In this document: positions 3,476 through 62,400 of the stretch, in pieces | Numbering within the stretch: the stretch's first letter is position 1 | Layout of the letters: every line of letters begins with the position of its first letter | Assembly (NCBI GenBank): GCA_963828125.1 | Contig: CAWHDP010000002.1 | Location: 64,001-128,000, forward strand | DNA from: an uncultured Chlamydiae bacterium | GTDB lineage: Bacteria > Chlamydiota > Chlamydiia > Chlamydiales > SM23-39 | Direction of reading: 5' to 3' | DNA length: 64,000 nucleotides | The notes under the pieces: generated by a model | Databases searched by the model: none | The model's input: the letters and a program-made list of their open reading frames with translations, nothing else | What the model was told of the DNA's origin: nothing | Translations under genes and position numbers: made by a program

Positions 3476-4135
3476 TTATATATCAGATGGAGTCGGGGGT
3501 TGTTTTGCTCTGGTGTTCGTTGCATGATCTCGAATTTCCCATTCGCCTCTGTGCGAGGGGGATTCATCTCTACAGATATATGCACCAAGCTCCCCAATCT
3601 GTCTTAGAGTACCTTGATTTTGCCTACTTGGCAGCTCTGACAATATGGTTTCTTGTATCCTTTGGCATGAAGCTTTTTTTGGCTCCCATAGCGATCTATA
3701 TTCATTTGGCACAATTTTACATTCAAATGTGTTTTTCGGAGGTTCAGTCTGTTCGAGACGCCATGCCGGACTCTTGCTCACGGCTATGAAACACCGCCAA
3801 TGCCCAACTTCGGCTGGATCTGGACTTGTTCCCGAAAAAACTAGAATCTTTTTATTCTTATCAAAACTTAATCCGTAATTATGGCTGTGTGCATATAAAA
3901 TTATCTGGTCGATCACGTCAGCAAACAACGTTCCAAAACGTTCCTTTAGGTAGTCTTTGGGGAATTCATAAGTCAGACGATGATTAGCCCTGTGTCCAAG
4001 CTCCTTAAAATAGTTTTCCTCTAGCACTTTCTGCAATGGCTCTAATACGTTCGAAGGGTCCCCTCCGTTCATCTCTGATTGGATCGTTTGTTGCGGCTGG
4101 TTTCCGAATTCGCTGGACGCTCTGCTTACCGTCAT
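3476..4135 (-). CDS. Orphan protein B (219 aa), effector-like, diverged paralog of 4446-5018
   Basis: GGAGG RBS before ATG 4135 (MTVSRASSEFG). AT-rich. The upstream part of the track ORF is valS-copy and leader sequence. Confidence 0.65.
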   Translation of the reverse strand: MTVSRASSEFGNQPQQTIQSEMNGGDPSNVLEPLQKVLEENYFKELGHRANHRLTYEFPKDYLKERFGTLFADVIDQIILYAHSHNYGLSFDKNKKILVFSGTSPDPAEVGHWRCFIAVSKSPAWRLEQTEPPKNTFECKIVPNEYRSLWEPKKASCQRIQETILSELPSRQNQGTLRQIGELGAYICRDESPSHRGEWEIRDHATNTRAKQPPTPSDI

Positions 4136-4143
4136 ATCACCAC

Positions 4144-4246
4144 CTCCATTTAGAATGGTACAGCCGAGATCTTGCCATGCGGGGTCATTAAAGATCAATG
4201 AAAAAATGGGTTTCCCACATCTTTCCACCTTTTTATTTTTGGATTT
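4144..4246. repeat. 103-bp direct repeat of 5027-5129 (upstream leader/RBS module)
   Basis: Identical to 5027-5129 except 3 substitutions by eye. Each copy lies just upstream of an orphan ORF. Confidence 0.95.
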
Positions 4247-4446
4247 TCGGATCAAAATATCTTGGAACGTGTCGACAAGAGCATGCCCCATATGGAGCAC
4301 CCCCGTCACGTTTGGCGGGGGATTACGATGCAAAAAGGGGGTTTTTCTGATCTGGGATCGGCAGAGAAGTAGCCCCCCTTCTCCCAGAAGGCATACCACT
4401 TCCCTTCAATGAGTCCCAGATCAAAAGCTTTCGGCAGCTCGGTCAT
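4247..4446 (-). pseudogene. valS: Duplicated, frameshifted 5' fragment of valS (copy of 3264-3464)
   Basis: About 10 substitutions plus a 1-nt deletion in the G run at ~4317-4321. Reads MTELPKAFDLGLIEGKWYAFWEK.../PNVTGVLHMGHALVDTFQDILIR and then runs into the leader repeat. Confidence 0.92.
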
Positions 4447-17067: not shown

Positions 17068-18201
17068 TTGATATATAATCTCGCTGGCAAATGTCAAGTT
17101 TCATATACAAAATGGAGATTTATTGTGAATAGAATTGCAAATTACTGTGCCGCCCCGCTCGGTATAGCGTATAGGGCTTTGGCTCATTTGAGTGTTAAAA
17201 AAATCGTGACGGTAGCTCTCGTTGCATTTGCAATTATGTATGGATCTCCTTATCAAGCCCCTCCTCTCAATCAAGTTATGTTAAAGAGTACTCCTTGCAA
17301 CCCTTTTTCCTCAGAACCCATCCGTCTTGATGGTGCAAAAATAATGGGAGCCAATAATCAAACATTATGTTTTTTTAAGAATCGCCCTGATCTACATCCT
17401 GGAGATCGATTGGCGCAACGGATCGATTCAGATGGTTTTTTTGGCATCCCGTGTTTAGAGAAAATCGCGATTCAAATTGGGGATAGAACGATCAGAGGAA
17501 TTTGTAGCCATGCAGTAGACAACGCGACCGATCTCCGTTCTTCAGATTTCCCTTCAAAAATGGGCGAGTTTTCGATCTTGGACGTTCAGAAAATGGCTCT
17601 ATTGGATGTCTTATTGGGTAATACAGACCGACACTTGGCTAATGCTCTGATTCAAGGAGATCGATTAATTCCGATTGACCATGATGCGGCTGCAATGGGG
17701 CGTATTTTTCTGAATGCTCATTGGTTGACGACTTCGGAACCATTTGTTAATAAAGAGTTTCAAGAGCATGGCCGATATCTCCGCTCATTTTGGATCAAAA
17801 GTCATGCTCTGGAGAGAGGGGATCATTTCCAACAAATCAATGCCCCAGTGGATCTCCAAATCGTGAACTGGATTAATCATTTTGATATTGAAATGCGAGC
17901 TGCCGATCTTCTTAATCAATTAGATCAAAGTGAAGCGGATTATATCCGATTGCATGTGCTCCTGCTAAAGGAGGTCATTGGGGTGAGAGGGCACACATTT
18001 GCTGAATTTGTGAGATTTCAACAAGAAGGCCTTTTTGAAGAAGCCCTGCGGGCCGCAAGAGATGTTTGCATAGCTGCCTTTCCACCATCTGAAATCAGCC
18101 GGAGAGCCAGCCCATCATCGAAAGAGGCGTTTCGACGCAAATTTTTCATCGAATTTCCCAACCAGCTTAGGGCCAGTCTGAATCGTGCAGAGCTGTCCTA
18201 A
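17068..18201 (+). CDS. PI3/PI4-kinase-like (PI4K type II/HipA-like) protein; start may be GTG at 17125
   Basis: ALLDVLLGNTDRHLANALI...LIPIDHD catalytic-loop motifs. N-terminal hydrophobic segment. AT-rich. Confidence 0.75.
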   Translation: MIYNLAGKCQVSYTKWRFIVNRIANYCAAPLGIAYRALAHLSVKKIVTVALVAFAIMYGSPYQAPPLNQVMLKSTPCNPFSSEPIRLDGAKIMGANNQTLCFFKNRPDLHPGDRLAQRIDSDGFFGIPCLEKIAIQIGDRTIRGICSHAVDNATDLRSSDFPSKMGEFSILDVQKMALLDVLLGNTDRHLANALIQGDRLIPIDHDAAAMGRIFLNAHWLTTSEPFVNKEFQEHGRYLRSFWIKSHALERGDHFQQINAPVDLQIVNWINHFDIEMRAADLLNQLDQSEADYIRLHVLLLKEVIGVRGHTFAEFVRFQQEGLFEEALRAARDVCIAAFPPSEISRRASPSSKEAFRRKFFIEFPNQLRASLNRAELS

Positions 18202-18904
18202 CCCGCATTGCTCATACATTCGCGGAAAACATAGTTCCAGCTGTCAGTGATCATCTGGACAAGCCGGTCGTTTTGTGCTCTGTTGTCAGGATAGAAATTT
18301 TGGGCAACGCGGATTGTTTTTCTTGCGAAATTTACGAATGTTTCATGCGGCCTCATTTGCGTTAAAGCCTTAAACCAAATTTTGGCTATAATCTCCATTT
18401 TGTTGGGTCGTCGCATAGATTGAACTACCCGATAAAAAGCATGGCTTGGAATTAAGCTATTTTCGTGTACATACCCAAAGTCATTTTCAGGGCCATGCGC
18501 TTTCGATGATTTGCGAAAATGGGCGGGACGTTGTCGTACATCGCGATCCACAATCTGCCATTCAGGCTTACCTGTTACCCAACTTTTAAAAACAAGTCCA
18601 AAAATATCGGCTAGAGATTCATTTAAGGCTCCGGGTTGTCCTCCTCTACGTAAAGGAGCTAAATGCCCGATAATCGCGTGTGTCCATTCGTGGGCCACGA
18701 CGTCCGGTTCTATATGCTTATTGTGAAATTGGAACGAGCAAGAGACCTCCTTAGCACCCACTTTAGAGCGGCACGACCAGCTTGCATTATCTTGGTTCCA
18801 GTCAATGAAAATGGGCGCCATTTTCCCTGAACCGTCCAATCCATCCAGCTGAAAAGTTTCCCAGAAAAATCGGTGAATCTTTTCGACGATTTTAGAAATT
18901 TTAG

Positions 18905-20284
18905 GGTTCATCCGACAAATGCGTACCTGGACTCGTGTAGGTGATAAAGTCGCAATTTAAAATATTCAATATCTCGAAACCCATAAGCCTGCCTTTTCAT
19001 TGTCTTGATTTTGTTGTTTATGCCTTCTGCTGCGGCGTTCGAGATTCGATGTTTGAAATAGTTCAATAACCCCGTCTTGTATTGGTGTAATGTTTTGACC
19101 ACTCGTCTTAGCGGTTTGAGCCCTGTTGCCAAAGCATCGACTCCCCATCTGACGAGAAAATGTTCCGCCTCCTCTACAGAGTCTTTCTCCCAGAAAAGTT
19201 GGAATTGCTCCTTCAGGGAATGTGCCAAAAACAAGGGTTCATTTACAGCCAATAAGGCGCCCAATCGTGTTTGGTTTTCTAGATCCAAGTTGTCATAATT
19301 CGTTAGGAATAAAAACCGACTTCCCTTCAGTACTTTTGCATCGGCCCCACTCAAGTTTTGCTGTTGATCTTTGCGCACCTCGTCCAGGGCTTTATTCAAT
19401 AAAGCCGTCACATGAAAATGATCAAATACCACATCTACGTTCGGCAAAAACTCTTGTGCTGCTGGGTAGTACGATTTGCTCATGTCCATAGCGATTGCTT
19501 TTAACTTTGGTGCGTGCTTTGCCAGTTTCTTGAAAAAGGGAGCTACCGCCTCTATAGTTCTACCCTCTACAGCGTGAATAATTCTCCCCGACCGTAGATC
19601 TGTGAAAACGGTCATGTATTCATGCCCTTTCCGTATGCTGAATTCATCGACGGTAATGTATTCCAAATCTTCTAGAGGAATTGTTTTATAGAGAGCAGTC
19701 AATTTCTCTTTGTGGATCCTCTTCACGACATTCCAGCTAATTTTTAGAAATCGAGAGACATCCAAGAGAGTGCTAAAATGCAAAAGATCCAGCACGTGTG
19801 CTATCATGGAGCGCACCATTCGGAATTTGCCTTTCATAAAAGGCAATCGAGGCCACCATTTATGGCCACATTGAGGACATGCTACTCGATGTAGCAGCAC
19901 GTTTAGAAAACAGGGCTTGCCGCCAAACGGCACCATTTTAAACTGCCGCTTTTTTTGTCCCTTGAAGATTGTGCGCGTACAGCCACATTTGCATTGAGAT
20001 GGATCGACCATTATAGCGTGGATCGTAATCGCCCCCGCTTCAAATTTGGTAGATTGGTATTGAACTCCGCTGATTCCGTATGCATGATACAAGAGAGAAG
20101 TAGACATAGAAGAAGCCTCCCGTGAGGGTGTTTATTCAAGCTCCTTTTATATGTCTGCTTCTTTTGTTTCTACCCGCCAGTCAAGACCTTCTAGAAATCA
20201 CAACGCGCTGAATAATCAATACTTATAAAAATCTAAGGACTTAATGCCTTTCCCCTCTACAGGTACTCATTTGTCGGATGAACC
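18905..20284 (-). mobile_element. ISL3-family insertion sequence (1380 bp)
   Basis: 24-bp terminal IRs ggttcatccgacaaatg(c/a)gtacct with 1 mismatch. 8-bp TSD aattttag at 18897-18904 and 20285-20292. Confidence 0.97.
18908..20107 (-). CDS. ISL3 transposase
   Basis: Zn finger CKCG...CPQC, VDEF, AMDM, FDHFHV, SNAAAEGINNKIK...AYGFR. Confidence 0.97.
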   Translation of the reverse strand: MSTSLLYHAYGISGVQYQSTKFEAGAITIHAIMVDPSQCKCGCTRTIFKGQKKRQFKMVPFGGKPCFLNVLLHRVACPQCGHKWWPRLPFMKGKFRMVRSMIAHVLDLLHFSTLLDVSRFLKISWNVVKRIHKEKLTALYKTIPLEDLEYITVDEFSIRKGHEYMTVFTDLRSGRIIHAVEGRTIEAVAPFFKKLAKHAPKLKAIAMDMSKSYYPAAQEFLPNVDVVFDHFHVTALLNKALDEVRKDQQQNLSGADAKVLKGSRFLFLTNYDNLDLENQTRLGALLAVNEPLFLAHSLKEQFQLFWEKDSVEEAEHFLVRWGVDALATGLKPLRRVVKTLHQYKTGLLNYFKHRISNAAAEGINNKIKTMKRQAYGFRDIEYFKLRLYHLHESRYAFVG

Positions 20285-24399: not shown

Positions 24400-25677
24400 A
24401 TGCAATTCACTGTGACGATGCCTAAACTTTCCCCCACGATGGAAGAGGGGACGATCGCCAAATGGCACAAGAAAGAAGGGGACAAAGTCGGGGCAGGGGA
24501 GCTACTCGTCGATGTAGCCACCGATAAAGCGACCATCGAATACAATGCCCTCGACGAGGGGTATCTTCGGAAGATTCTGATTCCGAATGGGGGTCATGCT
24601 GTCGTCAATCAGCCGATTGCCCTATTCACAGAAAAAGCAAACGAACATTTCGCACTCCCAGAGGTTAAGCCCGAGCCGCCCAAAGCCGCTGCTCCGTCTA
24701 CAGCCGCCCCTACCGCTTCTATCAAGCCTGCTGTTGCGGCAGCCATGCAGCAGCCCGCCTTCGCGCCGGAACCGCCTCTGGAAAAATATGAGTTCGCCTT
24801 TCCAACAGGTGGCTCCGGTAGGCGCACGCCAGCCTCTCCGCTCGCGAAAAAGCTCGCCAAAGAGAAGGGGCTCGACATCGCCTCGGTGAAAGGCTCCGGG
24901 CCAGGCGGGAGGGTCGTTAGCCGCGATCTCGACCTCGCGCAGCCCGATCAGACAGTCTCCTTTGGGAAACGGGAGGCGCCGACCGAGACGCCCGGCAGCT
25001 ATGAGGAGCTCTCCCTCACCCCGATGCGCAAAGTGATCGCGCAAAGATTGCAGCAAGCCAAGAGTTTTATTCCTCATATCTATGTGAGACAAGAGATCGA
25101 TGCGGCCCCCCTTGTTGAGGCGCGCGAGCAGCTCAAAAGCGGGAACGTAAAAGTGACGTTCAACGACTTCGTGATTAGGGCCTGCGCCCTCGCTCTCCGG
25201 GAACACCCGAATGCCAACAGCGGCTTTGATTCAGTGAACCAGTCGATCATTCTGTTTAAGACGGTCGATATTTCCGTAGCAGTCACTGTGGAAGGGGGGC
25301 TGATTACCCCGATCATCCGTCACGCCGACTACAAAAACCTCGGTGAAATATCGCTTGAAGTCAAAGAACTTGCGACAAGAGCCCGCGCAGGGAAATTGCA
25401 GCCCGAGGAGTACAAAGGGGGATCGTTCACGATCTCCAATATGGGGATGTTCGGAGTGAGCGACTTCGCCGCCATCATCAATCCCCCCCAAGCAGCGATC
25501 CTCGCCATTGGCGGCATCGAAGAGTGTCCTTGCGTGAGACAGGGGCAAGTGGTGGTGGGGAAGCGGATGCATTTGATCCTTTCCGCCGACCACAGAGTGC
25601 TAGACGGGGCCGAGGCCGCCAAGTTCATCAAGGCTGTTCAAAAATATCTAGAGAATCCGGCGCTACTGCTGGTTTAA
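24400..25677 (+). CDS. pdhC: Dihydrolipoamide acetyltransferase (E2)
   Basis: Lipoyl motif TDKA, ASPLAKKLA E3-binding domain, DHRVLDG. Confidence 0.97.
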   Translation: MQFTVTMPKLSPTMEEGTIAKWHKKEGDKVGAGELLVDVATDKATIEYNALDEGYLRKILIPNGGHAVVNQPIALFTEKANEHFALPEVKPEPPKAAAPSTAAPTASIKPAVAAAMQQPAFAPEPPLEKYEFAFPTGGSGRRTPASPLAKKLAKEKGLDIASVKGSGPGGRVVSRDLDLAQPDQTVSFGKREAPTETPGSYEELSLTPMRKVIAQRLQQAKSFIPHIYVRQEIDAAPLVEAREQLKSGNVKVTFNDFVIRACALALREHPNANSGFDSVNQSIILFKTVDISVAVTVEGGLITPIIRHADYKNLGEISLEVKELATRARAGKLQPEEYKGGSFTISNMGMFGVSDFAAIINPPQAAILAIGGIEECPCVRQGQVVVGKRMHLILSADHRVLDGAEAAKFIKAVQKYLENPALLLV

Positions 25678-25754
25678 TTTGTAATATGCTAATTGTCTGT
25701 GCATGAGCATATCTTTAGATAGAACATAAAATCTTTATATGACATCATATCCAC

Positions 25755-28700
25755 TTACTTTACAGGAGGTGGGCTATGGGTAAATTTACTAGAGCGGATG
25801 AAAAAATCCTCAAAGGGAAAGTGGGCGATGAGTTCCTTTTCAGTCCTGGGGAAGGATTTGAAAAAGAGGGGGCTGGCGACGAAGAGAAATTTTTTCCTTG
25901 CTCGGCTGATTGCGACGTTGAATCTGCGGTAGTCTTTCAAAAAGGGGCTGTGGAGGGTCTCTCGATCGGATACTGTGGCGGAGAAAAACACGAGATTGAA
26001 TTCTTGGCCTTGCATCCGCTCTACTGTATCGATTTTGGGATGTCTGATGGCGAAAGGAAGGGTCTCTTTCAGAGCGCTCAGGATTGTGTTGTTTTGGAGC
26101 CGATGGGGGGAAATAATGCCGATCTCTTCGATGGGAAAGGAGTAGTCTACAGTAAGGCGCTTGACTGCTTGTGCGATCCAGAGGGCCTCTTCTTTTGAGG
26201 ATTGGAGATTCCCTTCATGTTCTACGGGCACAACCGTTAATGGCTTAGATGGGTCGAGGTAGGCGTCGATGGGGTCAGAAAACAGAGGATAATGCGGCAG
26301 CTCGAGTCTTTGGGTTCGCTACGGCGCTCTGAAGCTCTTGGTCATACCAATGCCGGCTGACAAATTGGCAGATCGGTCCATTCATCCGGTGGGTTTCTTT
26401 CAATCGGAGGCGATGTTGAGGTTCGAAACGGGAGATGAGCTCTGCCAAGATGGAGCGGGCGGGGATGTCTACTGCCACAATGGGGGGCAGTTGTTGGGTG
26501 TCTCCGTAGAATAGAGCGTTTCCTTTTCCAAAGACGAGACTTAACAGCGCGTAGGAGGGGAGTATCTGCGAGGCTTCGTCAAAAATGACCCAGTCGAAGA
26601 CGCGCGGGAACTGTTTGCCCTCGAGGAGCTGGTAGGCGCCAAATCCTGTGGCGCCGAGAATAAAGCTCGTGTTTTGCATGGGCGGTTTAGCGTCTGGCAG
26701 TGGCTCTACGCCAGACTTGGCCTCGGTAAAGCGCCCATATTTCCAGATGGGGATTTGTTCTTTTGGGCCGAGGGTGCGCGCGAGTTTGAGTAAAATTTGA
26801 TCGATGGCTTGGTGGGTGAGGGCTGTCACCAGAATTTTGATCGGGCGGTCGATCGATTGTGCATGAGAGATCAGTGCGATCAATGTCCAGACGAGAAGGT
26901 GTGTCTTGCCGGTGCCTGGAGGTCCTTCGATGAGGCCGATGTTTTTTAAAAAGGGGAGGAGCAGAGCCTGTTTTTGCATCGCATTCAGGCTCGCCGCTTC
27001 GGCATGGCTGGCGTACCACTGCTCTACCCACTCTGCTGCAAGGATGGGGGCCTGTTTTCCGTGGCCGTGGAGCGTGTGGATGATCTCGGGTCTAAATTTA
27101 GGGTCTTTGAGCCTTTGTAAAACGGTTTCGATTTTGGGCGCATTCCAGTCTGTCGCACATTCATCGAGGGCGTATAATTGGTTTTTGCCGATGGGCATTT
27201 TGTCAGACAGAGGCTGAATGGAAAGCGTCCCCTCTTCGGGAGAGTAGGAGGTGAGGATGACGGTAAGGCCGTCCTGAATCTGCGCACTATGCGCGGCAGA
27301 GAGTTTGAGGAAGTCGCCGACCCGAAATTTGGCAACGGGCGCTTTGGGATCGATCGAAAAGAAGTAGCGGCTTTCTCTCTTTTCTGAAATGACGCTTAAA
27401 AACGTTAGGGGGCCAATGGCACGAAACTGCTCCACGCGCGTTGCCAGGGGGTTTTTCTGAAAGGCTAGTGTGGCAAGAGTCCGCTCTTCCCACTCCCTGC
27501 GCTGCATGGATAGGTAGGTATCGATAAGACCGGTTGGAGGCGGCGCAGCAGAGCAGGTGCTTTTTACGTGGGAGGCGCACCAGGTACAAATCTGTTTGTA
27601 TAAGTCAGGGGGGACGGAAACATCGTCGTGGTAGAGACTGAGCGGTGGGGGTGGGTCTGTCATCAGCCCTAAGCATCTAGCCACCTGGGTTGCGGTGAGA
27701 TGCCCTTCGACGGGCCAAGTAAAATGTTTTTGGAGAAAAGAGTGGATCGATGGCCAATCATCAGCATTGGGGAGAAAATCGGCAGATTCGGGTTTGACAC
27801 AGACAATCGGTCGTGCGGGCGGGGGCGCTTGGCTTTTCAATAGGGTCTCTTGGTAACAGTAGGAAAAGTAGCGGCAGGAGGTGCAACTGGAGTGCAAAGC
27901 GTATTGGTCGGGAGGTTTCATCGCATCGGTTCTCCATCCAGCGATGAGGTGGGGCATCCAACTGCTAAAAGGGAGGAGCGCGAAAGGGGTCCGTTTTTGC
28001 TCGGCCCCGCTCCGGTGGACTAGGCCTGCGCAGTGGGAAAGGGTCACGGGAACCCCTGGTAAAAGACGCTCTAGCAAGTAGACGTAGAAGGCAAGCCTCC
28101 ATTTTTGGGCATAGGAGAGCGTCTCTTGGGGCTTGACGTCCCACACCTCGAGGCGCACATGGGAGCCTTCGTATTTCAGATAGATCAGGTCGGGACTCCC
28201 TCTCATCGGGAAGGGGTCATCGATGGCTAGTTTTACCCCCGCTAAAAATAGAGAGGTTTGGCTGGCTACACAATCGTCAATCGCTTGTCTCAACGTAAAA
28301 TCAGCTGTTTCGAAGCGTACACCCGCCAATGTTGCGAGGATCTGTTTTTTAAAATCGCTTTTTGGCCAAACCGTTTGCAGGCGGGGATGGGGCTCTATGG
28401 CAAAACCAACACGCTGAAAATGGGCCAACCTCGGACAGGTTTGGTGCGCGACATAGCTTTGTAGTTGGTTCGCTGTCAACCCACGCTCCACGCCTTGAGG
28501 GACTTCGGGAAACAAGAACTGCCCCCACGTCTTTCTCTCGTCTTCCAATGACCATGGCCTACCCACTAGAGGGATCAACTTCTCTGTCGGGAGGTTCTCG
28601 ACGAGAAGCGGCGGAGGCTTTTGGCTCGGTTCTGTCCGATACTTGTCAAAACGCTCTAACACCCTCAGATCTAGGAGGCTAGCACAGATCTCTTTTATTT

Positions 28701-30708
28701 GGAGATCGTCCGGCAGTGAAGAGAGCCAACTGTTCCACGAAAAAGCCTGTCGCAAAAGAGGTAAATACGCTTCTACCCACTCCTGAAAGAGAGGGACAGA
28801 GTAGGGGAGCGTTAGGATTTCGAAGGGGATCCACTCATTGCTTTCAATGGCAATTTCATCAAAACGGACAAATAGCCCTTCCATTTTGGCAGACAATTGA
28901 TGTTTGATCTGGTGGTAAATAATAAAATTTCCAACCGTGCCCAAAAACGTCTCATAACAGTAGGCGCCGGATTGCAAGCGACGGACGTAAAGAGGGCCGT
29001 CTTCTCTGTAAGGCCGGCGTGCATTTTCTAACAAACGCCGTGTACGAGTCAGTAAGCCTTGCAGCTGTATACCATCATCGGCCAATAACTTGGATTTCAT
29101 CGTTTGGGCCACTTCGAAGGAGATCGGCGCTCCACAGCCACTCCAAGAGAGCTCTACACTCACCGGCTCAGCCGATGCTTCGACGAAAACTTCTCGAGAG
29201 GCTCTCTTTTCCTCAATTTGGAGCAATTTCAATCCTCTCCCCGTGAGTTGAAAAATATCGCCGATCTTTAGCTGTTTGATGACAGCTAAGGGGAGTGAAG
29301 CGATCACCTCTTTTTCTAAAATCACCTCGTATTCTTCATCTGCCGGAGGGAAATTGCTCCAAATTTGTTGTCTTTGCAAAGCGATCTTATAGCGCCATCC
29401 GCCAGAAAATAATCCCGGCTCTGGCATCGGCTGCAGCCAATCCTTGGCTCCCATCTTTTCCATGATCACGGGGAGCTCCTCTGCGGTAAAAAGGGGATGT
29501 AATGAATGGAGTGAGATCGCTTTTTTTGCATAGAGACACGATAAAATTTGCTGAAACAACACACTATGGTGGCTTGTCGCGGGACGTTTTTCTACTCTAT
29601 TTTCCTTGCCAAGCTCAAATAGAGCGAGAAATCGGAGGAGCTGGCGCTCCGCCTCGGCGCCATAGCAGACACCCCAAAATTTCAGGATGTTTTGCCTCCG
29701 GTTACCCCTCCCGATCCGCTGCAAAAAGGCCATCGTCGAGGGTGGAGGCCCCATCAACACAACGCCGTCGATATCCCCGATGTCGATCCCCATTTCCAAC
29801 GTACTGGTGGCGATGCAAAGACATTGTTTCCGATCGCGAAAGGACGATTCAATGAAGCGTCGCTCTTTAGTAGAAAGATTGGAATAGTGCAGTAGGACGT
29901 TGCCCTTAAAATTCCCTTCGCAGTTCAAAGCTTCAAATAATTGCTCGCATTTTTTACGGCTGTTTGCAAAGACCAATAACTTTTTGCACGGAAGATCATC
30001 AAAAAAAGGAACTAATTCCCGCCGTTCATCCACAATGTGCACCCAGCAAGGCTCTAGCTTCCGGGCCGCAGATTGTTGATAATAAAACACATTAGTTAGA
30101 TGAAAAAAGGAACGAATGTCCTCTGGATATGTAATGGTGGCCGACAGGGTTAATGTTTGCAGACCTCCCTTAGACTGCACTTCCAGCCGGCGCCGCAGAT
30201 GGGAGAGCTGTGATCCACGCTCCGTCCGGAGAAAAGTATGCACCTCGTCGATGATGAGGACACGAACATGTTTTAAAAAATATTTATTCTCCATATTTTG
30301 GCTGCCCAAGAGGACATCCAACGACTCTGGAGTGAGGATCAGGAGGTGGGGCTTTGCATCTTGTAGAGTTTTTCCATCCCCCGTCCGCATCCCCGATTTT
30401 AGCCCCAGTTGTTTGTAGAGCGGTTGAATCCTCCGATGCATATCCAAAGCCAATGCACGGGTCGGGACGATGTAGAGGATCGTGAAATGGCCCTGATGAG
30501 TCATCAGCCGCTCTGTCGCAGGGGCTAATACCGCCTCTGTTTTTCCCAATCCCGTACCCGCTTGGAGGATGACATCTCTTTTTTCAAGAATCGGCTGGAC
30601 GAGCGCTTTTTGTGCGGCCGTTAAAAAGCCAAATCTTCCGAAAAAGGGGCGGTACGTGTTAGGAAGCTGTTCCAGTACAGAAGATGTCGAGCTGATGAAC
30701 CAACGCCT
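25755..30708 (-). CDS. Lhr-like SF2 helicase - Fe-S PD-(D/E)XK nuclease - Dna2/UPF1-like SF1 helicase fusion (~1,650 aa; one frameshift at ~26313; start uncertain)
   Basis: SF2 motifs: AGTGLGKTEA, PTRAL, IIDEVH, LSAT, TSTLEMGID, QRIGR. Nuclease motifs: CPR...PDL...WDVK...CTSCRYFSYC. SF1 motifs: GPPGTGKT, FDEASQ, GDTQQLPP, HRM, then TVERMQGQE and NVAISRA in 25755-26231. The frame is open upstream to 30708. Confidence 0.85.
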
Positions 30709-31774
30709 TTAGTTTGAATCTTGTTTCTTGGCTGTTTAGTTTTCCGAGAAGGACTCTCATTTGCTGTTTGATTTCCAGAGCTTTGGCCGTAATGTCGATT
30801 TGGTAGGCCTCCGCATAGAGAGTGATGAGTCGATCCTGCAGAGTTTCCCAGCGCGCCAAAGAGGAATCCTGCAATCGGACGATCTGCACACTTTTCCAAG
30901 TCTCAGAGTAATTTTGGGGAAATCGTGGTATTTCACCGCCATATTCCTCAGAGCGAACCTGATCGAAAAAAGTCTCTGTGAACGCGAACACAGGGTACAC
31001 AAAGCCGCTCTGCTGAAAAAACTGACTGAGAATTCCATAGCTCTTAACCCTTGCGCTGAGACGCCCTTGCGCGATCGATTCCGCCTCGTCGAAAAACAGC
31101 ACCAGGCCCTTGAGGCCCATTGCATGAAGGAGTGTGCCTAGAGATTGGATCATTTGGACATATGGGTCATTTCCGCGGACAGTCAAGCGGCTGTTCTCGA
31201 TACCCCTCCACCCCTCTAGCCTTCAAGATCTGTGTTAGACAGGAAATAGGGAGATCGTGGCCCGCCAATGCCTCTCCTAGCCAATAGTCGAAGTCTTTGG
31301 GTTTGAGTCCACTCTTCACCCCTCCCTTTTTGAGGAGGAGCTTATTTTTAGAGCGGAGGGCCTGCAGAATCATCCGAAAACGATGAGGCATGTCGTCGGC
31401 TACTTCCAACAAGCCCTCTTTCCATCTTGCAGCAAACGACTCCCCAGTCGGCAAAGAGAGATTCTTCATGATCGATTGGTACACAACCGGAAATTGATGA
31501 AAAGGGGTCTCCCTTACATCGAGCTGAAGGAAACTCGTCGCATACCCTTGATCGCGAGCCTGTCTCTGTAAGTAAGTCAGGTTATGGGATTTCCCCTGCC
31601 CATACGAGCCGCAAATGCACAAATGACCCGACTGCCCCTTCTCCAGAGCTTTCAAGCCCCTTAAAAGGTCTGGACGAGTCCCTCCTCCTCCATCGTCAAA
31701 CGATCCACCGCGACTGGATCGAAGAGTCCAGCTCTCAGCCGTTCGATGGCTTGTCGTACAGGAAAGGCGCCCAT
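30659..31774 (-). CDS. BrxD/DUF2791-like P-loop ATPase 2 (~370 aa; frameshifts at ~31665 and ~31187)
   Basis: ATG 31774 MGAFPVRQAIERLRAG, then GSYGQGKSH (Walker A), then KGLVLFFDEAE (Walker B), across three frames. Confidence 0.8.
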
Positions 31775-31775
31775 C

Positions 31776-33039
31776 TTATGCATCCCACGCGGGCTCAAGC
31801 TTCTCCGCTCTTTCTCGTTCCATTTCCTGGTGGCTGGCGAGCAGATTGTCGACCAGATTAAAGTCTTGCTGAATATGCCCTTGCTCCGCCATATCGAGGA
31901 AACGGATCATCTGCTTGATGAAGAGGCGCACTTCGCTCAAAATTCCCATCTCCTCCTGTTTTTTGCACATATCTGCAATCAGATTTTCAGAAACCATGTC
32001 CCGAGCCTCCCAGCGATAAGAGATTTCGTGGATTTTTCGTAAACAAACGCCCAGATCGATTAATTCTGGCCGCTTGAGCGGCGTTTTATGCAGATCGATG
32101 AGCGTGCCGCGGTAGTTCACCCCCTCAGAATCCCCCACCGAACGGACGCGGCTCCAGAGCGCATCGTAGGACTTAAATCCTTTTTCCGATAAAAGCACAT
32201 CGGGAATGAGAGAAAAGAACAGTTGCAAATATTCAGAATGCTCGGCGTTATCCATCAGCAACCGAATGTTTTCATAAGCCGCGCTGCGAACAGAACTCCC
32301 TTGCGCCAACACAGTCTCTAGCTCGTCCAAAAGGACAATCAATCCCTTATGGCCCGTGAGCTTCAAAAAGGAGATCAGCGACTGCAAAAACATCTTACTA
32401 TTCGACTTATTCAAAACTTCAAAAATATGGAATTTCGCCAGATTCTTCTTAGGGATCTTTTTCCCCTCTAACCACTGATACAACATCTCCTGCATCGCCG
32501 CTGTCTCTTCTGGCGGCTCATTGTCAGCAGCTTCCCGCAAAAGCCCCATTAGGGCATTGGCAAAGTTGACATCCAACCTGGGAACCCTGCGCAAAGACTG
32601 AAGAAGCGTCTCCCGGTCAACATCCACTTTTTTTTGTTTTTCGACCCACTGCTGCACCAACGCCCGGACGCCCACCCCCTCAAATCGCCCCCGCAGCATG
32701 CTGAACGATCTCTTGGTAGACGAGCTCGAACTTGTGGATAGGAATATCGCGCGTTAACACAACAAAAGAGGCGGCAAACTGCTTTTGCAGCGCCAGCTGA
32801 CAGATCACCGACATAAAATGGGTCTTTCCATCCCCATAATCGCCATTGATGAACCGCACCTTGCCGCCTCCCTCCCCGATGAAGCCATCTAAATCTTCCT
32901 CGACAAACTTAAGCCAATTTTGGCGCCCCACAGTGAAAAACGGCACATACTCCGTCGGAGTAAGCCCCTTCCTAAGACTCTCTATGATCGCTCTGGCTTG
33001 GAACGGTTTCAGCTGCTCAATATCTTCTTTTGTAATCAT
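31776..33039 (-). CDS. BrxD/DUF2791-like P-loop ATPase 1 (~420 aa; frameshift at ~32697)
   Basis: IIESLRKG.P...VGR, GDYGDGKTH, KGLIVLLDELE, YDALWSR. Confidence 0.85.
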
Positions 33040-33040
33040 A

Positions 33041-33883
33041 TTAAGCCTTCGCAAAAGAGGCGTGGGAAATCTGCCGTTTTTCCCCCTGTTGATCGATAAG
33101 CCAAAGCGTCCTCATTCTGCCAGAAGCTAACCGAATGCAGTACCCGCCACTCGTAGCAGAAACATTCGAAGTAAAAAAGCGCCAGAGATCGACCGCAAAT
33201 TGCTCAACGCTATAGCCTTTAAACTTCGCCTTGTCCATATTTTGCAAAAACGCTTTACTCTGCAACGACCAAACATAGTCGGTGTACAACTGGAGAATAG
33301 GAACTACATCCCCCATCCCTTGCTTCTCTTTTTTCAGGATCTCCTGATAGCACGCAAATAAAGAATCAATGAATAGCTCCGGTTGAAAAACAGAGTCATA
33401 CAGCTTCCTCTTGAGGTTTAGAGCAGCCGATACAATCCTTTTTGGATCGAACGATTTGATCGTGAGCTCTCCCAACACCGTCCGTCTCGTAGCAAAGTTT
33501 ACCTCACCATCGATCCCTCGCAGCACAAAAAATTTGGGGAACTCGATCCGCATAGGGAGCCCCGCCCTCTCTGCGGCCTCCATCAAACCGTTGTTAAATT
33601 CCAACTTATACCGCTCAATTTGTTCGTCTGCATACCCTTGCAACTGAGAGAAAATCGGCTCGCAGCCCCCAAGACTTGCGTCCTCTAAGACCTCTCCAAC
33701 CTGCTTGGCTTTGAGCAGCTCATCCAATTGGAAAAAGTCATTCTTTTCCATGCACTGGATGCATTTTTTGATGAAATCGGACTTTTTCTGCTGCCGATTT
33801 AGCTCTTGCTGAAATGGCTTTACAATCTCTCCGAGACGATGCTTGGCCTCTTCCACATTTGTTAACGGCTCTAACAAGGTCAT
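33041..33883 (-). CDS. Hypothetical protein (280 aa), first gene of the island operon
   Basis: Intact ORF ending 1 nt before the ATPase 1 start. No recognisable motif. Confidence 0.8.
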   Translation of the reverse strand: MTLLEPLTNVEEAKHRLGEIVKPFQQELNRQQKKSDFIKKCIQCMEKNDFFQLDELLKAKQVGEVLEDASLGGCEPIFSQLQGYADEQIERYKLEFNNGLMEAAERAGLPMRIEFPKFFVLRGIDGEVNFATRRTVLGELTIKSFDPKRIVSAALNLKRKLYDSVFQPELFIDSLFACYQEILKKEKQGMGDVVPILQLYTDYVWSLQSKAFLQNMDKAKFKGYSVEQFAVDLWRFFTSNVSATSGGYCIRLASGRMRTLWLIDQQGEKRQISHASFAKA

Positions 33884-33961
33884 AAGCGCGCACCCTTTTG
33901 TTAAGCGAGGAAGTGTAGCAAATCACAAAAATTGCCTTCAAGAGAAATATTTGGAGAGCCA

Positions 33962-34861
33962 TTACTGCTGTAGCGGGAATGGGAAACTTTGCGTCTCATC
34001 GTCCAATATATAGCCGGGGAGGGCGAAGGCTGCCCTATGAACGGCTGGCGTGTAATAGCGCATGGTTCCTTGGATCTTGGCAAGGCGTTGGCGAAGGGTC
34101 TTTTCCGAGGGTCTGTATTTCTTGTCGTTGGCCCAGCCGAAGGCCATGAGGCCGCCCGCATAGCTCGGAACTGGCGCAACGAAAAATGTGGTATGTCGGA
34201 AATGGGGTTTTCTGTTTTCGACTGTCAACTTCAGCTCGCTTTTTTGCATGAAGGGAACCCCATTTTGATTGACGAAAATCCCGCCTGGCTTCAGGATTTT
34301 TTTGCAATCGCCGTAAAATTCAGAGGTGAATAGTCCTTTGGCAGGCCCCTCTGGATCATTGGAATCGCAGAGGATCACGTCAAATTTTTGATCGGTTCCC
34401 TTCACATATTTTGCAGCGTCTTGGATGACAATCGTGGCTTTTGGATGTTCAAAGGCCCCCTTGGAGATACTGGGAAGGTATTTCTTGGAGAGCTCGATCA
34501 TCGACCGGTCGATCTCTACGAGAATCACCTTGTCCAGCGCCTCATGCCGGAGTACCTCTCTCAAGAGCCCTCCATCACCGCCGCCGATGATCAGAACGGA
34601 TTTCGGATCGGGGTGCGTGAGAAGAGGGACGTGAGCCATCATCTCGTGGTAAATCCATTCGTCTTTTTCAGTGAGCTGGATGACTCCGTCAAGGGCAAGC
34701 ACGCGGCCAAACCGGCTGTTTTCAAAAATCGTTAGATCCCAAAATTCAGTTTTTTCCTCGTAGATCATCTCATCGATGGAAAAAGTCTGCTTCCATTCCG
34801 GATAGAGCCGCTCTTGATAACTCGAAATCAGTGCCGCAGCGAAAAGTAGGGTGGCGAGCAT
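33962..34861 (-). CDS. speE: Spermidine synthase (polyamine aminopropyltransferase)
   Basis: LALDGVIQ, YHEMMAH, IIGGGDGG, VEID, DSNDP. Confidence 0.95.
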   Translation of the reverse strand: MLATLLFAAALISSYQERLYPEWKQTFSIDEMIYEEKTEFWDLTIFENSRFGRVLALDGVIQLTEKDEWIYHEMMAHVPLLTHPDPKSVLIIGGGDGGLLREVLRHEALDKVILVEIDRSMIELSKKYLPSISKGAFEHPKATIVIQDAAKYVKGTDQKFDVILCDSNDPEGPAKGLFTSEFYGDCKKILKPGGIFVNQNGVPFMQKSELKLTVENRKPHFRHTTFFVAPVPSYAGGLMAFGWANDKKYRPSEKTLRQRLAKIQGTMRYYTPAVHRAAFALPGYILDDETQSFPFPLQQ

Positions 34862-48349: not shown

Positions 48350-48461
48350 CGGAGTGACAAGACCAGACAGACTAGCACATCTTGGTTATTGAGAAAAGAA
48401 AATTGAATCTTTCCTTCTCCCCGTGCTATAACAGGGTTGAAAGCATGGAAGAATGGGGCTT

Positions 48462-49630
48462 ATGAACCTCCACGAGTATCAAGCGAAAAAAATTTTAAAA
48501 AAATATGGGATCGCGATTCCAGAATTCGGTGTCGCGGCCACTGTTGAAGAGGCGCGGCGCGTAGCCGATGAACACCATTGGAACGAGGCGGTGCTGAAAA
48601 TCCAGGTTCATGCCGGAGGCAGGGGAAAGGCGGGCGGAGTGAAATTCGCGAAGTCCAAAGAGGAGATTGTCCGGTGCGCTCAAGAGCTCATTGGGATGAA
48701 AATGGTCAACGGGCAGACTGGCCCGGAGGGGGTTGTTGCTGAACGGGTGCTCCTCTCCAACCGATCGAGATCGAGAAGGAGTTTTATATCGGCGCCTTGA
48801 TTGATCGGGATCGGGCAGTTCCCCTTCTCATCGCCTCGCCCGAAGGGGGGATGGAGATTGAGGAGATCGCCCAGAAGTCGCCCGAAAAGATTTTAAAGAT
48901 GCCGTTTGCCTTCAATGGCCATTTGCGCCCCTACCAGATTCTCCGCTTGGCGAAATTCATGGGCTGGAGCGGGGATTTGGCCCGCAAGGGGGCCGTACTT
49001 GCGCAGGGGATCGCCAAGTGTTTCATCGACTCCGATGCATCGCTTTTGGAGATCAACCCCCTCGTCCTTGCGAAAGGGGGCGATCTGTTAGCTCTCGATG
49101 CAAAGCTTAGCGTCGACGACAACGCTCTCTTTCGCCAATCGGAGATCTTCTCTTTTTATGATCCGACTCAAGCATCGCCGCAAGAGGCTGCGGCTAAAGA
49201 GTTTGAGCTTGCTTATATCGCGATGCACGGGAATATTGGCTGTATGGTCAACGGAGCCGGGCTTGCCATGGCGACGATGGATATCATTCGCCTTCACGGC
49301 GGCGCACCTGCCAATTTTCTTGACGTCGGAGGCGGCGCCTCGAAAGAAAAAGTGGCCGAGGGGTTTCGGATTATCCTCGGCGATCCGAATGTGAGGGCCG
49401 TTTTAGTCAATATTTTTGGAGGCATCATGAATTGCGCAACGCTCGCGGAGGGGGTCATTCACGCTTGTCAAGAGCAGCGGATTAAAATTCCGATTGTGAT
49501 CCGGATGGAAGGGACGAATGTTGAGGAGGGGAAGCGGCTGTTTAAAGAGAGTCGTCTGAAAATCATGATAGCGACAAATTTATTGCAGGCGGCGGAACTC
49601 ACAGTCCGAGCTGCGAAGGGGTCAGTATGA
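48462..49630 (+). CDS. sucC: Succinyl-CoA synthetase beta (1-nt frameshift at ~48760)
   Basis: [18 protein letters not shown], then [23 protein letters not shown]. Adding one A to tccaaccg restores [11 protein letters not shown]. Confidence 0.93.
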
Positions 49631-58588: not shown

Positions 58589-59434
58589 ATGCGTGCGCTT
58601 TTTATTGCTGTTTTGTTGGCGTTCTCTCTCTCGGCAGATGAAGAAATTGGACTCATCGGATCGAGTCCCGATCAGATCGCCTCTTTGATGAGCGACGGCT
58701 CGTTTTTGATCGGAGGCTGCGTCCACCCATTGTCTGGGCAGCTCTCTTTAAGTTCCGTGGATTTGGTAGCCAAGGGAACCCAACCTTTAAGCCTTTTCCG
58801 CGTCTTTGTTCCCGGTTCGATCGCTCCCCCTCCGCCGCTCCGCCATTCGGAAATGCAAGAGTATTCCAATGAAAGAGCTTTTTTACAGTCTATCCAGAAG
58901 AGTCATAGAGGCTGGGTCTTTCTCCCCCATGCAAGGCTGGAGTGGAAGGGAGCGGAGTTGTTAGCTCCCGAGCGATGGAAGGTTCCCGATACAAATGGCG
59001 CCATCTATTCCTTCGCCTCCGGGAGTGGGAAATGGCTCGATCTCTCAGGCGTAAGCAACGCCTCGGGGGATACCCCCTCAGGCCGTTTTGATCCGAGGAA
59101 TATTCAAGTTATCCCTCAACCTGAGGGTGTTGAGGTTTCGTTTCCCGATGGGACGAAGAGAATCTACCATGGAGGGAATCAGGTATTTAATCTCTCCAAG
59201 GAGATTCTTCCCAACGGGAAAGTCGTTAAGTACTCCTATTCGGAAAACAAGATCCTGATCGAAAGTTTCGATCCTTCAGAAAAACACCTCTACGCCTCTT
59301 TGATCCTCGATACCGCGACCTTCCCCAATCAACTCTTGATCCATGATTGGTTCCGCAAAGGCACTTGCGGCGAGTACAAAAATAGCAAAGGAGAGTACAG
59401 GGGGGAACGAGAGGCGTCCCCTATATGGCGGTAA
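58589..59434 (+). CDS. N-terminal part of an RHS protein with Sec-type signal peptide
   Basis: MRALFIAVLLAFSLSA, CVHPLSGQL...DL...G..PL.L.R typical of RHS N-termini, EILPNGK. Out of frame with 59425-63573. Confidence 0.75.
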   Translation: MRALFIAVLLAFSLSADEEIGLIGSSPDQIASLMSDGSFLIGGCVHPLSGQLSLSSVDLVAKGTQPLSLFRVFVPGSIAPPPPLRHSEMQEYSNERAFLQSIQKSHRGWVFLPHARLEWKGAELLAPERWKVPDTNGAIYSFASGSGKWLDLSGVSNASGDTPSGRFDPRNIQVIPQPEGVEVSFPDGTKRIYHGGNQVFNLSKEILPNGKVVKYSYSENKILIESFDPSEKHLYASLILDTATFPNQLLIHDWFRKGTCGEYKNSKGEYRGEREASPIWR

Positions 59435-62400
59435 CTGGAGCGCGAACCAACACTGGGCAAACCGCCGCCTACGGATATGAGTCCACCAACAGATCTAAAA
59501 AACTCGACAAGAAGTGCGGGCTATTCACGGATGAATTTTCTTTCATCCCAAATTTAAAAACTGCCTCCACTCCTGAATATCGGGGAGAGAGTTTTGAGTA
59601 TGACCATTATTTGCCGATGATCCATTTCGGGAAATCTCAATTTGTGAAAGTGACTTATCAAGGCTCCCCCCTTCGCGTCAAAACGCTCCACTTTCCAAAC
59701 GGAAACCAAGACGCCTTTATCCCTCTCTACACGATCGATATCGATCCACCGATATCCAATCAAAAATCAGGAACGACTACCGTGACTCGTAAAGACGGTT
59801 GTCAAACAATCTACACTTTTTCTCATCAGATGCTCCCCCAATCGATCCGATGGCTCGCCCCCGATGGCAAAACGGTTAAACTCAAGGTTTATGGCTGGGA
59901 CGCCGATCATCGCTTGACCTTTATCGAGTGGAGAGATGGGGACAATCGCCTTTTTTATCGAAAATCTTTCGAAGAGTATGACAGCTTCAACAATCCGCAA
60001 AAAGAGAGGATGACGGGCGATCTCACTGGATCGGGATCCATTGAAACGTATACGATCTCGCGTGTTTTCTCCAAAGATCGGATGAACCTCATTCTTCAGG
60101 AAGAGACCGAAGACGGCCTGACGACCACCTTTCGCTATGTGGATAAAACCAATCTGTTGAAAAGTAAGTACACGAGAGGCGAAGGGGTTCATGTTAGAGA
60201 ATTCTTTGAATACGACGCCTCCAATAACCTCATTCGAACCATCCTCGATGACGGCAGCCATGACGATCCGGACGACATGAGGGATATCACTGAACAGCGC
60301 ATCGTCAACTATACTCTCCGGCAGAGCGCCCCCTTTTTACACATGCCGGAACAGATTGAAGAGAGATCGATGGATGGCTCGCTCATCAAGAAGACGAAGC
60401 TAACCTATGACAAATGGGGGAACGTTGCAGAAGAGGAGGTGTTTGGTTCCGATGATCAGCTCGCCTATTCTGTTAAGAAAGAGTTTGACGAGCAAGGCAA
60501 TATCGTTTCAGAGACCAATCCCCTTCAATGTACGGCTGTTTCGAGCTATGATCCGAGGGGCTTTCTCCTCACATCGGCGACCTTCTCAAACCGGCTGAAA
60601 ACTGAAAGGGCATACAATGCAGCAGGCCGGCTCAAAGAAAAGGTTGAAACAGGAGGAGAAATCGTCCACACCACGCGCTACGATTACGACATCTATAGCC
60701 GGCTGATCAAAGAAACGGATCCTTTTGGCAACGATACCGAATATAAAGAATACGATTCCGTAGCAGCTCAGCCCAAACGGATAGACGAGCCCCTCGGCAT
60801 AGTCAATAAAAATCTCTATGACGGCTTAGGCCGCTTCATTGAGAAAATCGATCCAAACAACCACGCAACCCACTATAGATATAACGCTTATGGTTCTCCC
60901 GTAGAGATCATCTATCCAGATGGGACGTCTGAAAAATACGTCTACTATAAAAATGGGAAAATGAGATCCTACACGGATCAGAGAGGAGTGACGGCCGAAT
61001 ATTTTTACGATGTGTTGGAGAGACCCACTAAAAAAAAATTTTCCTTTCAGAAAGAACAGATCGCCCAAGAGATTTTTACTTATAGTTCATTCCATCTCGA
61101 AACCCACACGGATAAAGAAAAGCGGATCACGACCTACAAATACGACGGCGCCGGAAGAAAAAGGGAAGAAACCTTTTGCGGTAGAACCAAAGTCTTTGAA
61201 TACAATCCGATTGGACAGCTCGCAGCCGTCACAGAGGGCGGCACTCTTAAAACGGAGTATGACCGCGATCCGTTAGATCAGATCCTCGAGATTCGGAAAA
61301 CCGATCTGAAAGGGGAGCTGCAATACCGGATCGGATATGGATGGGATCCGGACGGCAATCAAATTTCTACCACTCGCTATCCGCATAATCAAGCGGCTGT
61401 GGAGACCTCCATATTCGATCCATTTGGACGGATCACCGAATGGAAAGATCCGATTGGCTTTAGCACTACTACAAAATATCTGGAAAGTTCCCATCTGCAA
61501 ACGATTTCAACAGACCCGAATGGGATAGAGACGACTCAAATCTTTGATGCCTGTGGGAGACTCACTTCGACGCAGATCGGCGCATTGTATAAAGAAATCC
61601 AAAAATACGATTTTGCGGGCAATCTCATCGAAAAAGAAGAGGCGTCGCTTAAAACACGCTATGAATACGACAGTCTAAATCGGATAAAAACTTTGACCCG
61701 AGCGTACGGCTCTCCTGACGCTAGAACCACTACCTATACTTATAAACCAGGGGGCCTGCTTGGCACGAAAACATTCCCCAATAAAACGAGCTTAACCTAT
61801 GAGTATACTCCCCTTGGCCACCTCCATTTTGTCGATTCTTCGGACGACTCTATTCACCAAATATTCGAACATGATTTAAACGGACAGCTCCTTTCTGCCA
61901 TTGACGACCACCACGTCTTTACCCGTATCCTCGATGATTTCGGCAATATTTTAACCGAAACGATCAATGGGATCTCTGTTCAAAGAACCTACGACCCCCT
62001 CAATCGCCTCGCATCGATCACATTTCCCGATCAAAGTTCTGCCCATTATATCTATGAGGCCCTCTATTTAAAAACTGTTCAACGTTTCTCTGCCTCTCAT
62101 CAGCCGCTCTATATCCACACCTACTCATCCTATGATTTATCCGGAAATCTCATTACCGAAGAATTCATCCACAATCTCGGCTCCCAATCCCATACCTGGA
62201 ATACCAATCGAGCCAAAACCTCGATCACTAGCCCCTATTTCACACAAACCCTTGAGTTTGATCCTGGTTCTCGGATCAGATCGATCTCCTCCGATGGGAC
62301 TTATGAGTACAACGATCAATCCGAGTTGACCCTCGAGCATCTTCCCGACCGCCAATGTATCTACGCCTACGATCTGCACCACAACCGTTCTGAAAAAAAC

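Follow-up and report, generated by a model that had tools for sequence, protein, structure and literature searches.

We describe a gene in which two helicase motors surround a nuclease, carried on the minus strand of a 64,000-nucleotide stretch of DNA (the window, whose first letter is position 1 throughout) from an uncultured Chlamydiae bacterium (contig CAWHDP010000002.1 of assembly GCA_963828125.1, positions 64,001 to 128,000 of the forward strand). This fusion gene joins a superfamily 2 (SF2) helicase, a four-cysteine nuclease and a superfamily 1B (SF1B) helicase, and is the last gene of a mobile four-gene cassette. Across its family the three modules lie in one chain, its C-terminal half models with a Dna2-like fold, and the cassette is an empty-site insertion with a patchy spread. 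The architecture is real, conserved and apparently unnamed, its parts being known and their combination new. We put at about even the chance that the fusion protein acts as effector of an undescribed system that destroys invading DNA and is related to Shango and to the BrxD-BrxHI pair.

The fusion gene and its domains are laid out as follows (pLDDT, predicted local distance difference test; rmsd, root-mean-square deviation; papers cited here and below by accession or DOI are drawn on for the accessible portions of their text).

25755..30675, minus strand: fusion gene of about 1,640 residues if unbroken, encoding an SF2 helicase, a four-cysteine nuclease and an SF1B helicase, with an extra base at 26317
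29674..30675, minus strand: SF2 ATPase core, two RecA folds, of the Lhr/BrxHI/SngC type (PADLOC and profile alignment to two Lhr proteins)
28624..29673, minus strand: SF2 winged helix, barrel and Lhr-like C-terminal region (boundaries approximate; BrxHI profile residues 28-626; domain names after PMC12839542)
27829..28491, minus strand: PD-(D/E)XK nuclease with 1+3 cysteines and a predicted 4Fe-4S staple (model pLDDT 91.9; Cas4 7mi4, Z 13.0)
27559..27828, minus strand: shrunken remnant of a TM0106-type middle region (length comparison and profile alignment of long forms)
27103..27540, minus strand: stalk helices and beta barrel of the UPF1/Dna2 type (IGHMBP2 4b3g, Z 10.3, rmsd 3.2, 127 aligned)
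26317..26988, minus strand: SF1B first RecA domain, motifs I-IV (AAA_11, E 2e-20)
25755..26316, minus strand: SF1B second RecA domain, motifs V and VI (AAA_12, E 1.8e-21), a separate frame in this assembly

All three motif sets could be placed to the residue. The complete Lhr-type SF2 set proposed in the original prediction, which was made from the letters of the window, lies at 29695-30564 (Walker A 30532-30564, DEVH 30232-30255, motif VI 29695-29721). The predicted Cas4/AddB/Dna2-style nuclease with its 1+3 cysteines was likewise located, at 27858-28437, with C758 (28437), D840 (28191), D857-x-K859 (28140-28134) and C942/C945/C951 (27885-27858). The SF1 motor has GPPGTGKT at 26899-26925 and DEASQ at 26566-26589. 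These sets are not chance matches, because the Pfam E-values are low (DEAD 1e-37, Helicase_C 4e-16, AAA_11 2e-20, and AAA_12 1.8e-21 on the tail frame) and the four cysteines and D840 are present in 111/111 aligned homologues.

In this assembly, the gene is divided between two minus-strand frames. The first (30708-26278, 1,477 residues from stop to stop) contains DEAD, Helicase_C and AAA_11 and stops after SF1 motif IV, while the second (26318-25758, 187 residues) holds AAA_12, that is, the second SF1 RecA domain with motifs V and VI. A single additional base at 26317 causes the split. The closest homologue, P0002 (1,655 residues), covers 30675-26308 at 80% and 26312-25788 at 89%, in two frames. 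Thus, the full SF1B set that had been claimed is present, with motifs I-IV in the main frame and motifs V and VI in the other, and the window as assembled does not encode the single polypeptide originally described, since the extra base puts the second SF1 RecA domain out of frame. At the other end, position 30708 is merely an upstream stop; homologue N-termini fall near 30675-30687, where the window has no ATG, GTG or TTG. In the closest clade (window 30659-30708; loci L001, L131, L134, L135 and L136), the normal fusion start codon is missing except for a GTG in L136, the frame of the preceding ATPase gene (ATPase 2, below) overruns the fusion N-terminus, and gene callers clip the Walker A motif off the fusion proteins. 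The first 42 fusion codons are nonetheless under selection (pairwise differences, 197 silent vs 81 changing). The five copies lacking a normal start all retain an ATC codon 9 bases behind AAGG, a conservation that may simply mirror the ATPase frame.

The unbroken architecture is widespread. A homologue search gave 135 proteins, and among the matches listed (120 of 135), which come from Chlamydiota, Desulfobacterota, Entotheonella and others, 111 of at least 1,500 residues were aligned; all 111 are single chains. In 92 of them every core residue of SF2, nuclease and SF1 is conserved, a further 10 have alignment gaps only (partial sequences) and 9 carry a nuclease substitution, and no tested SF2 or SF1 core residue is substituted in any of the 111. 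At the level of genome loci, the nuclease is fused to SF2 in 22 of 72 (18 whole, 3 cut at contig ends and 1 split in the middle region), with intact copies in the cultured strains Desulfobacter curvatus DSM 3379 (L024) and D. vibrioformis DSM 8776 (L028). No full-length match was found among 72,556 plasmid or 50,697 phage records.

Short-read data bear on whether the split is real. Relative to related loci, the cassette contains four net frameshifts, at 26317 in the fusion gene, at 31183 and 31663 in ATPase 2 and at 32696 in a further ATPase gene (ATPase 1). We compared four of the five listed short-read runs, all four from one study, over 25000-34500. In run X1, a single contig of 10,113 bases (depth 12), 99.7% identical to the window, covers 25759-34500 and is free of all four indels. 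Run X2 lacks three of the four and X3 lacks one (no cover reported at the others); the ATPase 2 indels at 31663 and 31183 are absent from both X1 and X2, and 31183 is also absent from X3. Between X1 and the window there are 20 substitutions, 12 of them in the fusion gene (7 of those 12 silent). Because 20 bases differ, X1 represents a sibling strain, not a second reading of the DNA assembled here. Methylation-type sequencing error was considered as a source of these substitutions and rejected, as they share no common context by eye and 7/12 of the helicase changes are silent. Thus, an unbroken gene exists in near-identical DNA, whether the breaks are error or decay, and we think that they are probably mixed-strain consensus errors rather than recent decay. 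The short-read contigs join the domains and do not place them in separate genes; the one-chain architecture therefore stands for the family and the sibling strain, and fails for the window as assembled. A rule that copies are broken only in long-read assemblies did not hold: the copy in G165 has two interrupting insertions (about 1.4 and 1.7 kb) and the one in G185 is a truncated remnant, both in one frame. As for the assembly background, 4 of 151 orthologues (178 kb, 269 probes) switch frame, with one false case dropped. Within the window, sucC (48453-49630) lies in two frames, probably through an assembly error.

The C-terminal half models as Dna2, with a four-cysteine PD-(D/E)XK nuclease, stalk, barrel and UPF1-type SF1B motor, which is the domain order of Dna2 itself (PMC4716839). 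When residues 700-1240 were modelled with 103 sequences (pLDDT 91.9), three Dna2 structures topped the Foldseek search (E 3e-10 to 3e-7), with 5ean (E 3.3e-10) spanning nuclease and barrel; RecE, AdnA, Cas4 and IGHMBP2 came next, and RecE, AdnA, Cas4 and Exo5 were at E<1e-3. A wide structure search gave Cas4 7mi4 (Z 13.0, rmsd 3.9, 200 aligned) and Dna2 (Z 11.7, rmsd 22 over 290 residues, meaning the same domains in a different pose), and the best solved relative by family profile is Dna2 (E 1.4e-53). The middle region thus does model as the Cas4/AddB/Dna2-type nuclease domain that had been anticipated. The 1+3 cysteines are present in 111/111 homologues, a count from sequence only, and a 4Fe-4S cluster is predicted.

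Profile alignment points to the origin of this half. The 35 longest homologues align with TM0106-type nucleases (probability 99.9, 456 columns), and stand-alone nuclease-helicases of 1,130-1,475 residues and two-gene versions exist; the C-half is therefore taken as a TM0106/Dna2-type module with a shrunken middle region, descended, by this alignment, from TM0106-type nucleases. The last cysteine and the stalk are 133 residues apart here; the 35 longest homologues have a median spacing of 316. The TM0106 family profile TIGR03491 did not match the window pieces, and a long form scores 26 bits against a cut-off of 97.

The N-terminal half is a relative of Lhr rather than Lhr proper. It aligns with two Lhr proteins over 510 columns (probability 100), and its invariant W522 (29145) aligns with the Lhr W-x-G motif, yet it misses the Lhr family cut-offs (192 bits vs 850 for TIGR04121 and 144 vs 849 for PRK13767); its PADLOC matches are to BrxHI (E 1.7e-80, the best) and SngC (E 1.7e-73). 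The Lhr-type label given earlier thus holds for motifs, winged helix and W-x-G, and gives way, for the protein as a whole, to kinship with BrxHI and SngC. Lhr moves 3'-5' and requires Thr145, Arg279 and Trp597 (PMC5758891); their counterparts, mapped through other Lhr proteins (a Pantoea Lhr in the case of the tryptophan), are kept in 111/111 homologues, and by homology the motor here would also move 3'-5'. In a quick tree of 49 rows with few references (6 Shango, 3 BREX-2, 2 Lhr), the 23 fused rows form one clade (Shimodaira-Hasegawa-like approximate likelihood ratio test, SH-aLRT, 100), which groups with plain cassette helicases (99.7), apart from the Shango, BREX-2 and Lhr rows; the 3 BREX-2 rows cluster with those of Shango, and the 38 cassette rows stand separately (support 99.7). 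By this phylogeny the SF2 half is a third family beside BREX-2 BrxHI and Shango SngC. SngC, BrxHI, DruE and DpdJ have been described as a defence clade (PMC12278908).

The original prediction overlooked three upstream genes of the same cassette, which are packed tightly ahead of the fusion gene, the last of the four.

33041..33883, minus strand: gene A, 280 residues, with a helical N-terminal part, a small beta domain and a probable C-terminal winged helix (model pLDDT 96.3)
31776..33054, minus strand: BrxD-type ATPase 1 (PF10923, E 5e-24 and 4e-27 on two pieces), broken at 32696
30659..31774, minus strand: BrxD-type ATPase 2 (PF10923, E 6e-11 and 3e-9), broken at 31663 and 31183

ATPase 1 matches PADLOC BrxD and SngB, and the ATPase pieces score below the cut-off of NCBIfam BrxD. 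Gene A has no Pfam, PADLOC or NCBIfam match and 142 relatives at E<=0.001; its aligned members share no family common to more than 1 in 100, with no TerB or SngA match. Its structure has no Foldseek match at E<=0.001, residues 167-280 weakly resemble ORC1/TubR winged helices (Z 5.7-6.2), and its look-alikes in the Atlas are all unnamed. A likeness to a helical ribosomal protein (best Z 8.1) was discarded as lying within the background range. For locus L001, a predicted complex of gene A and ATPase 1 (77 and 36 aligned rows) scored 0.00, uninformative either way. A promoter and terminator scan found 3 and 8 sites, fewer than in shuffles.

This gene order recurs. Among the 22 fusion loci, 15 have a BrxD-type gene upstream and 12 of these have gene A too, and a plain version (gene A, two ATPases and a helicase of about 700 residues) is found at 13 other loci. 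The plain cassette also occurs on plasmids of Aulosira and Desulfomonile, one copy directly behind a BREX-2-like PglZ-BrxD-helicase block. On the Aulosira plasmid (L118:1-9052), the gene A cassette adjoins the BREX-2-like block, so that three BrxD-type ATPases and two helicases follow in a row. Three of the 13 plain-helicase loci (L025, L027, L030) are near a separate RecD-like gene of 1,240 residues (PADLOC PDC-S68, E 0), which hints at repeated pairing of the cassette with a second motor. At L005, L020 and L023 a Pif1-HRDC helicase gene directly precedes the fusion, with no ATPase genes.

The cassette is mobile. It sits between pdhC and speE and has inserted there, because in 9 of 13 same-genus loci pdhC is the direct neighbour of speE or corA; it was found in none of 60 relatives, and outside the phylum it occurs in Desulfobacterota. 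The nuclease region occurs in 8 of 400 genomes of the phylum (2%), in 5 families, and these eight copies comprise six that are whole with the full cassette, one that is interrupted and one remnant. A piece of a repeated element (25702..25788, plus strand, 87 bases of about 200) overlaps the last codons of the fusion gene. This element matches 10 further places in the genome, one of them truncated at almost the same base, with a contig depth of 114 vs 12, and its longer copies open a short transposase-like frame, putatively of the IS5 type.

Two BrxD-helicase systems are closest. BREX type 2 likewise has a BrxD-type ATPase directly before an SF2 helicase with a winged helix, barrel and Lhr-like C-terminal domain (PMC12839542), whereas here there are two ATPases and an extra gene A, and the helicase lies outside the BrxHI clade and is fused to a nuclease-helicase. 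PglZ was not found in this 95%-complete genome (control match in 2/14), and no BREX core match was found among 99 neighbour proteins, the cassette being flanked by pdhC and speE. Of 5 other genomes with the fusion, 3 do encode PglZ at some position, and action in trans with BREX is therefore possible there. Shango (SngA, a TerB protein; SngB, an ATPase; SngC, a helicase), which has measured anti-phage activity (10.1101/2022.05.11.491447, 10.1101/2022.11.11.516204), shares the compact operon with a first gene, a DUF2791/BrxD-type ATPase and an Lhr-like helicase, and the SngB and SngC profiles match the cassette proteins. Unlike Shango, gene A lacks a TerB domain, the ATPase is doubled, and the fused helicase is more than twice as long as the stand-alone SngC of about 720 residues and falls outside the 6 Shango rows. 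TerB_N was not found in the genome by a search that matched 3/3 Shango plasmids. The fusion gene thus belongs to a defence-type cassette and is probably not a repair gene.

For the fusion protein itself, the nearest comparison is Dna2 together with BLM/WRN/Sgs1, which combines a four-cysteine PD-(D/E)XK nuclease, stalk, barrel and UPF1-type SF1B motor with a 3'-5' SF2 helicase. These are two proteins rather than one chain, their SF2 helicase is RecQ rather than Lhr-type, and neither the motif I histidine nor the motif IV glutamine of Dna2 is kept in the protein here, which is encoded on a bacterial mobile cassette. The long forms also align over nuclease and middle region with TM0106-family RecB-like nucleases that carry a UPF1-type helicase; the RNase H-like region of that family is degenerate in the long forms and mostly deleted here, an N-terminal SF2 helicase is added, and the proteins fall below the NCBIfam cut-off. 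The original prediction had likened the protein to RecBCD. RecBCD, AdnAB and AddAB do share motors with a RecB-family nuclease, an AddB-like cysteine staple and, in RecBCD, motors of opposite polarity, but they are multi-subunit SF1 repair machines, in contrast to an SF2 and an SF1B motor in one gene; because the whole C-half has the Dna2 layout, BLM/WRN/Sgs1-Dna2 is the closer parallel.

A DpdJ variant (PADLOC PDLC02895, 2,112 positions) matches the SF1B part here over its first 470 positions. It has the opposite domain order, a different SF2 family (DpdJ is described as a YprA-type SF2 helicase in 10.1101/2025.09.15.676423) and a different operon, and may be a precedent for an SF1-SF2 fusion in a defence system. 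A DNA2-like fusion also accompanies BRIGADE type I (10.1101/2025.09.15.676423). Neither the fusion nor the cassette is described in the literature searched, including the accessible portions of 10.1101/2025.09.30.679545 and PMC5704561, with subscription papers mostly outside its scope; the accessible main text of PMC12839542, supplements excluded, does not mention Dna2, Cas4 or Shango.

These comparisons suggest how an effector of this kind could work. The two BrxD-type ATPases, perhaps with gene A as a DNA-binding subunit, would load or switch on the fusion protein, much as BrxD loading of BrxHI has been suggested (PMC12839542). The Lhr-type motor would then track one strand 3' to 5' and open the duplex, while the displaced 5'-ended strand would thread the cysteine-stapled nuclease tunnel into the SF1B motor, which would pull 5' to 3'. 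Opposite polarity on opposite strands means that both motors would move the same way along the duplex, and one strand would be cut as they advance, as BLM/WRN and DNA2 do in cooperation as separate proteins (PMC5030094). The bipolarity assumed here, as in the original prediction, would follow from the polarity of the two helicase families. We advance only tentatively the bolder proposal that this is the first natural single-chain machine in which a 3'-5' SF2 and a 5'-3' SF1B motor on opposite strands drive one iron-sulfur nuclease, a one-piece bacterial counterpart of BLM-DNA2 resection, loaded by an ORC/Cdc6-type ATPase pair and representing a third, unnamed BrxD-helicase immune family.

Several observations weigh against a DNA-destroying defence effector in this genome. 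First, a BrxD gene is missing from the DNA covered at seven of the 22 fusion loci, 5 of the 7 with more than 3 kb upstream; most of the 99 neighbour proteins scanned have no PADLOC match, and many fusion loci lie amid housekeeping genes. Second, some observations would fit decay. Two of eight other phylum copies are decayed, and four frameshifts within 8 kb are a local excess, far above the background of 4 in 178 kb, which predicts about 0.2 (hand arithmetic). Two changes are private to the lineage and look real, as X1 shares them: four residues are deleted after residue 239, a loss not seen in the 15 closest homologues, and SF1 motif IV carries His in place of Tyr. Third, the helicase of Dna2 is largely dispensable for resection (PMC4716839). 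Finally, the nuclease motifs are altered. The active site of Dna2 comprises His164 (motif I), Asp278 (II), Glu299 and Lys301 (III) and Gln314 (IV); the window nuclease keeps D840, D857 and K859, and has Phe-Lys at motif I and Arg at motif IV. A glutamate at motif I and the glutamine at motif IV are each conserved in 34/35 long forms, whereas among the 76 homologues under 1,850 residues, window clade included, the glutamate is lysine in 76 and the glutamine is arginine or lysine in 74. The catalytic lysine is lost in 7 of these 76 and in 0/35 long forms. Because motifs I and IV are altered in its clade, we give roughly even odds that this copy cuts.

These same substitutions feed the alternative that survives best, though we still hold it unlikely: that the nuclease is weak or dead in this clade and serves as a cysteine-stapled clamp or sensor of single-stranded DNA, so that a two-motor translocase unwinds or blocks invader DNA and only the long Desulfobacterota forms cut. 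Most of the middle region is lost, the plain cassette exists without any nuclease, and inactivating the DNA2 nuclease unmasks a processive helicase (PMC5030094). However, the PD aspartate is kept in 111/111 homologues, the motif III acid in 109/111 and the catalytic lysine in 104/111, and an extra glutamate before motif III, invariant in the 76 shorter forms, might compensate.

We consider it quite improbable that the substrate is RNA:DNA hybrids or transcripts, as in R-loop clearing or RNA-triggered defence, rather than DNA ends. Lhr prefers RNA:DNA hybrids (PMC5758891), and the SF1 part is close to UPF1, IGHMBP2, Sen1 and ZNFX1 and matches MkoA/MkoC of Mokosh, for which RNA recognition has been proposed (10.1101/2022.05.11.491447); yet the best solved relative, Dna2, does not cut RNA (PMC4716839), and the nuclease fold is of a single-stranded DNA nuclease type. 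Little credence likewise goes to a horizontally spread accessory machine for DNA repair or end resection in place of a defence system. Lhr (PMC5758891) and Dna2 (PMC4716839) are repair enzymes, and some fusion genes lack the cassette, three of them directly behind a Pif1-type helicase gene. Set against this, 2% of the phylum's genomes have it, in families that are scattered and with some copies decayed; the partner ATPases are known from defence systems alone; and the genome has a separate RecB-like gene elsewhere. An incidental fusion of a cassette helicase to an adjacent TM0106-type nuclease-helicase, with halves acting independently, is very improbable: both halves exist separately and 1/22 genome loci plus 1 metagenome locus are split inside the middle region, but the fusion has a single origin and is retained down to about 35% identity across phyla, and close C-half homologues without SF2 look like fragments or broken copies in the subset checked.

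Other features were seen along the way. In Chloroflexota, Acidobacteriota and others, a recurring gene pair (L040:6418-8529, L065:2434-4461 and similar) encodes a UPF1-type SF1 helicase of about 590 residues and, after it, a UvrD-like helicase of about 680; the polarities of these two motors are likely opposite. Within the window, a region lower in guanine plus cytosine at 17068-20107 holds a frame with a weak PI3/PI4-kinase match, a partial M4 peptidase and an ISL3 transposase, and another such region at 59425-63573 encodes an RHS-repeat protein of 1,382 residues. Beside valS, a 307-residue frame (3476-4399) matches a tRNA synthetase N-terminus over its first 54 residues, and there is a partial duplicate upstream of valS.

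RecBCD and BLM/WRN-DNA2, which are multi-protein machines, are known to feed a nuclease with two motors of opposite polarity. In a single chain, each motor could be mutated in a fixed one-to-one setting, which bears on the role of the Dna2 helicase, and natural controls are available in the plain helicase, the long fusion and the short fusion with altered nuclease motifs. The gene also gives a way into the mechanism of the BrxD-helicase pair of BREX-2 and Shango, which comes here with a candidate effector attached.

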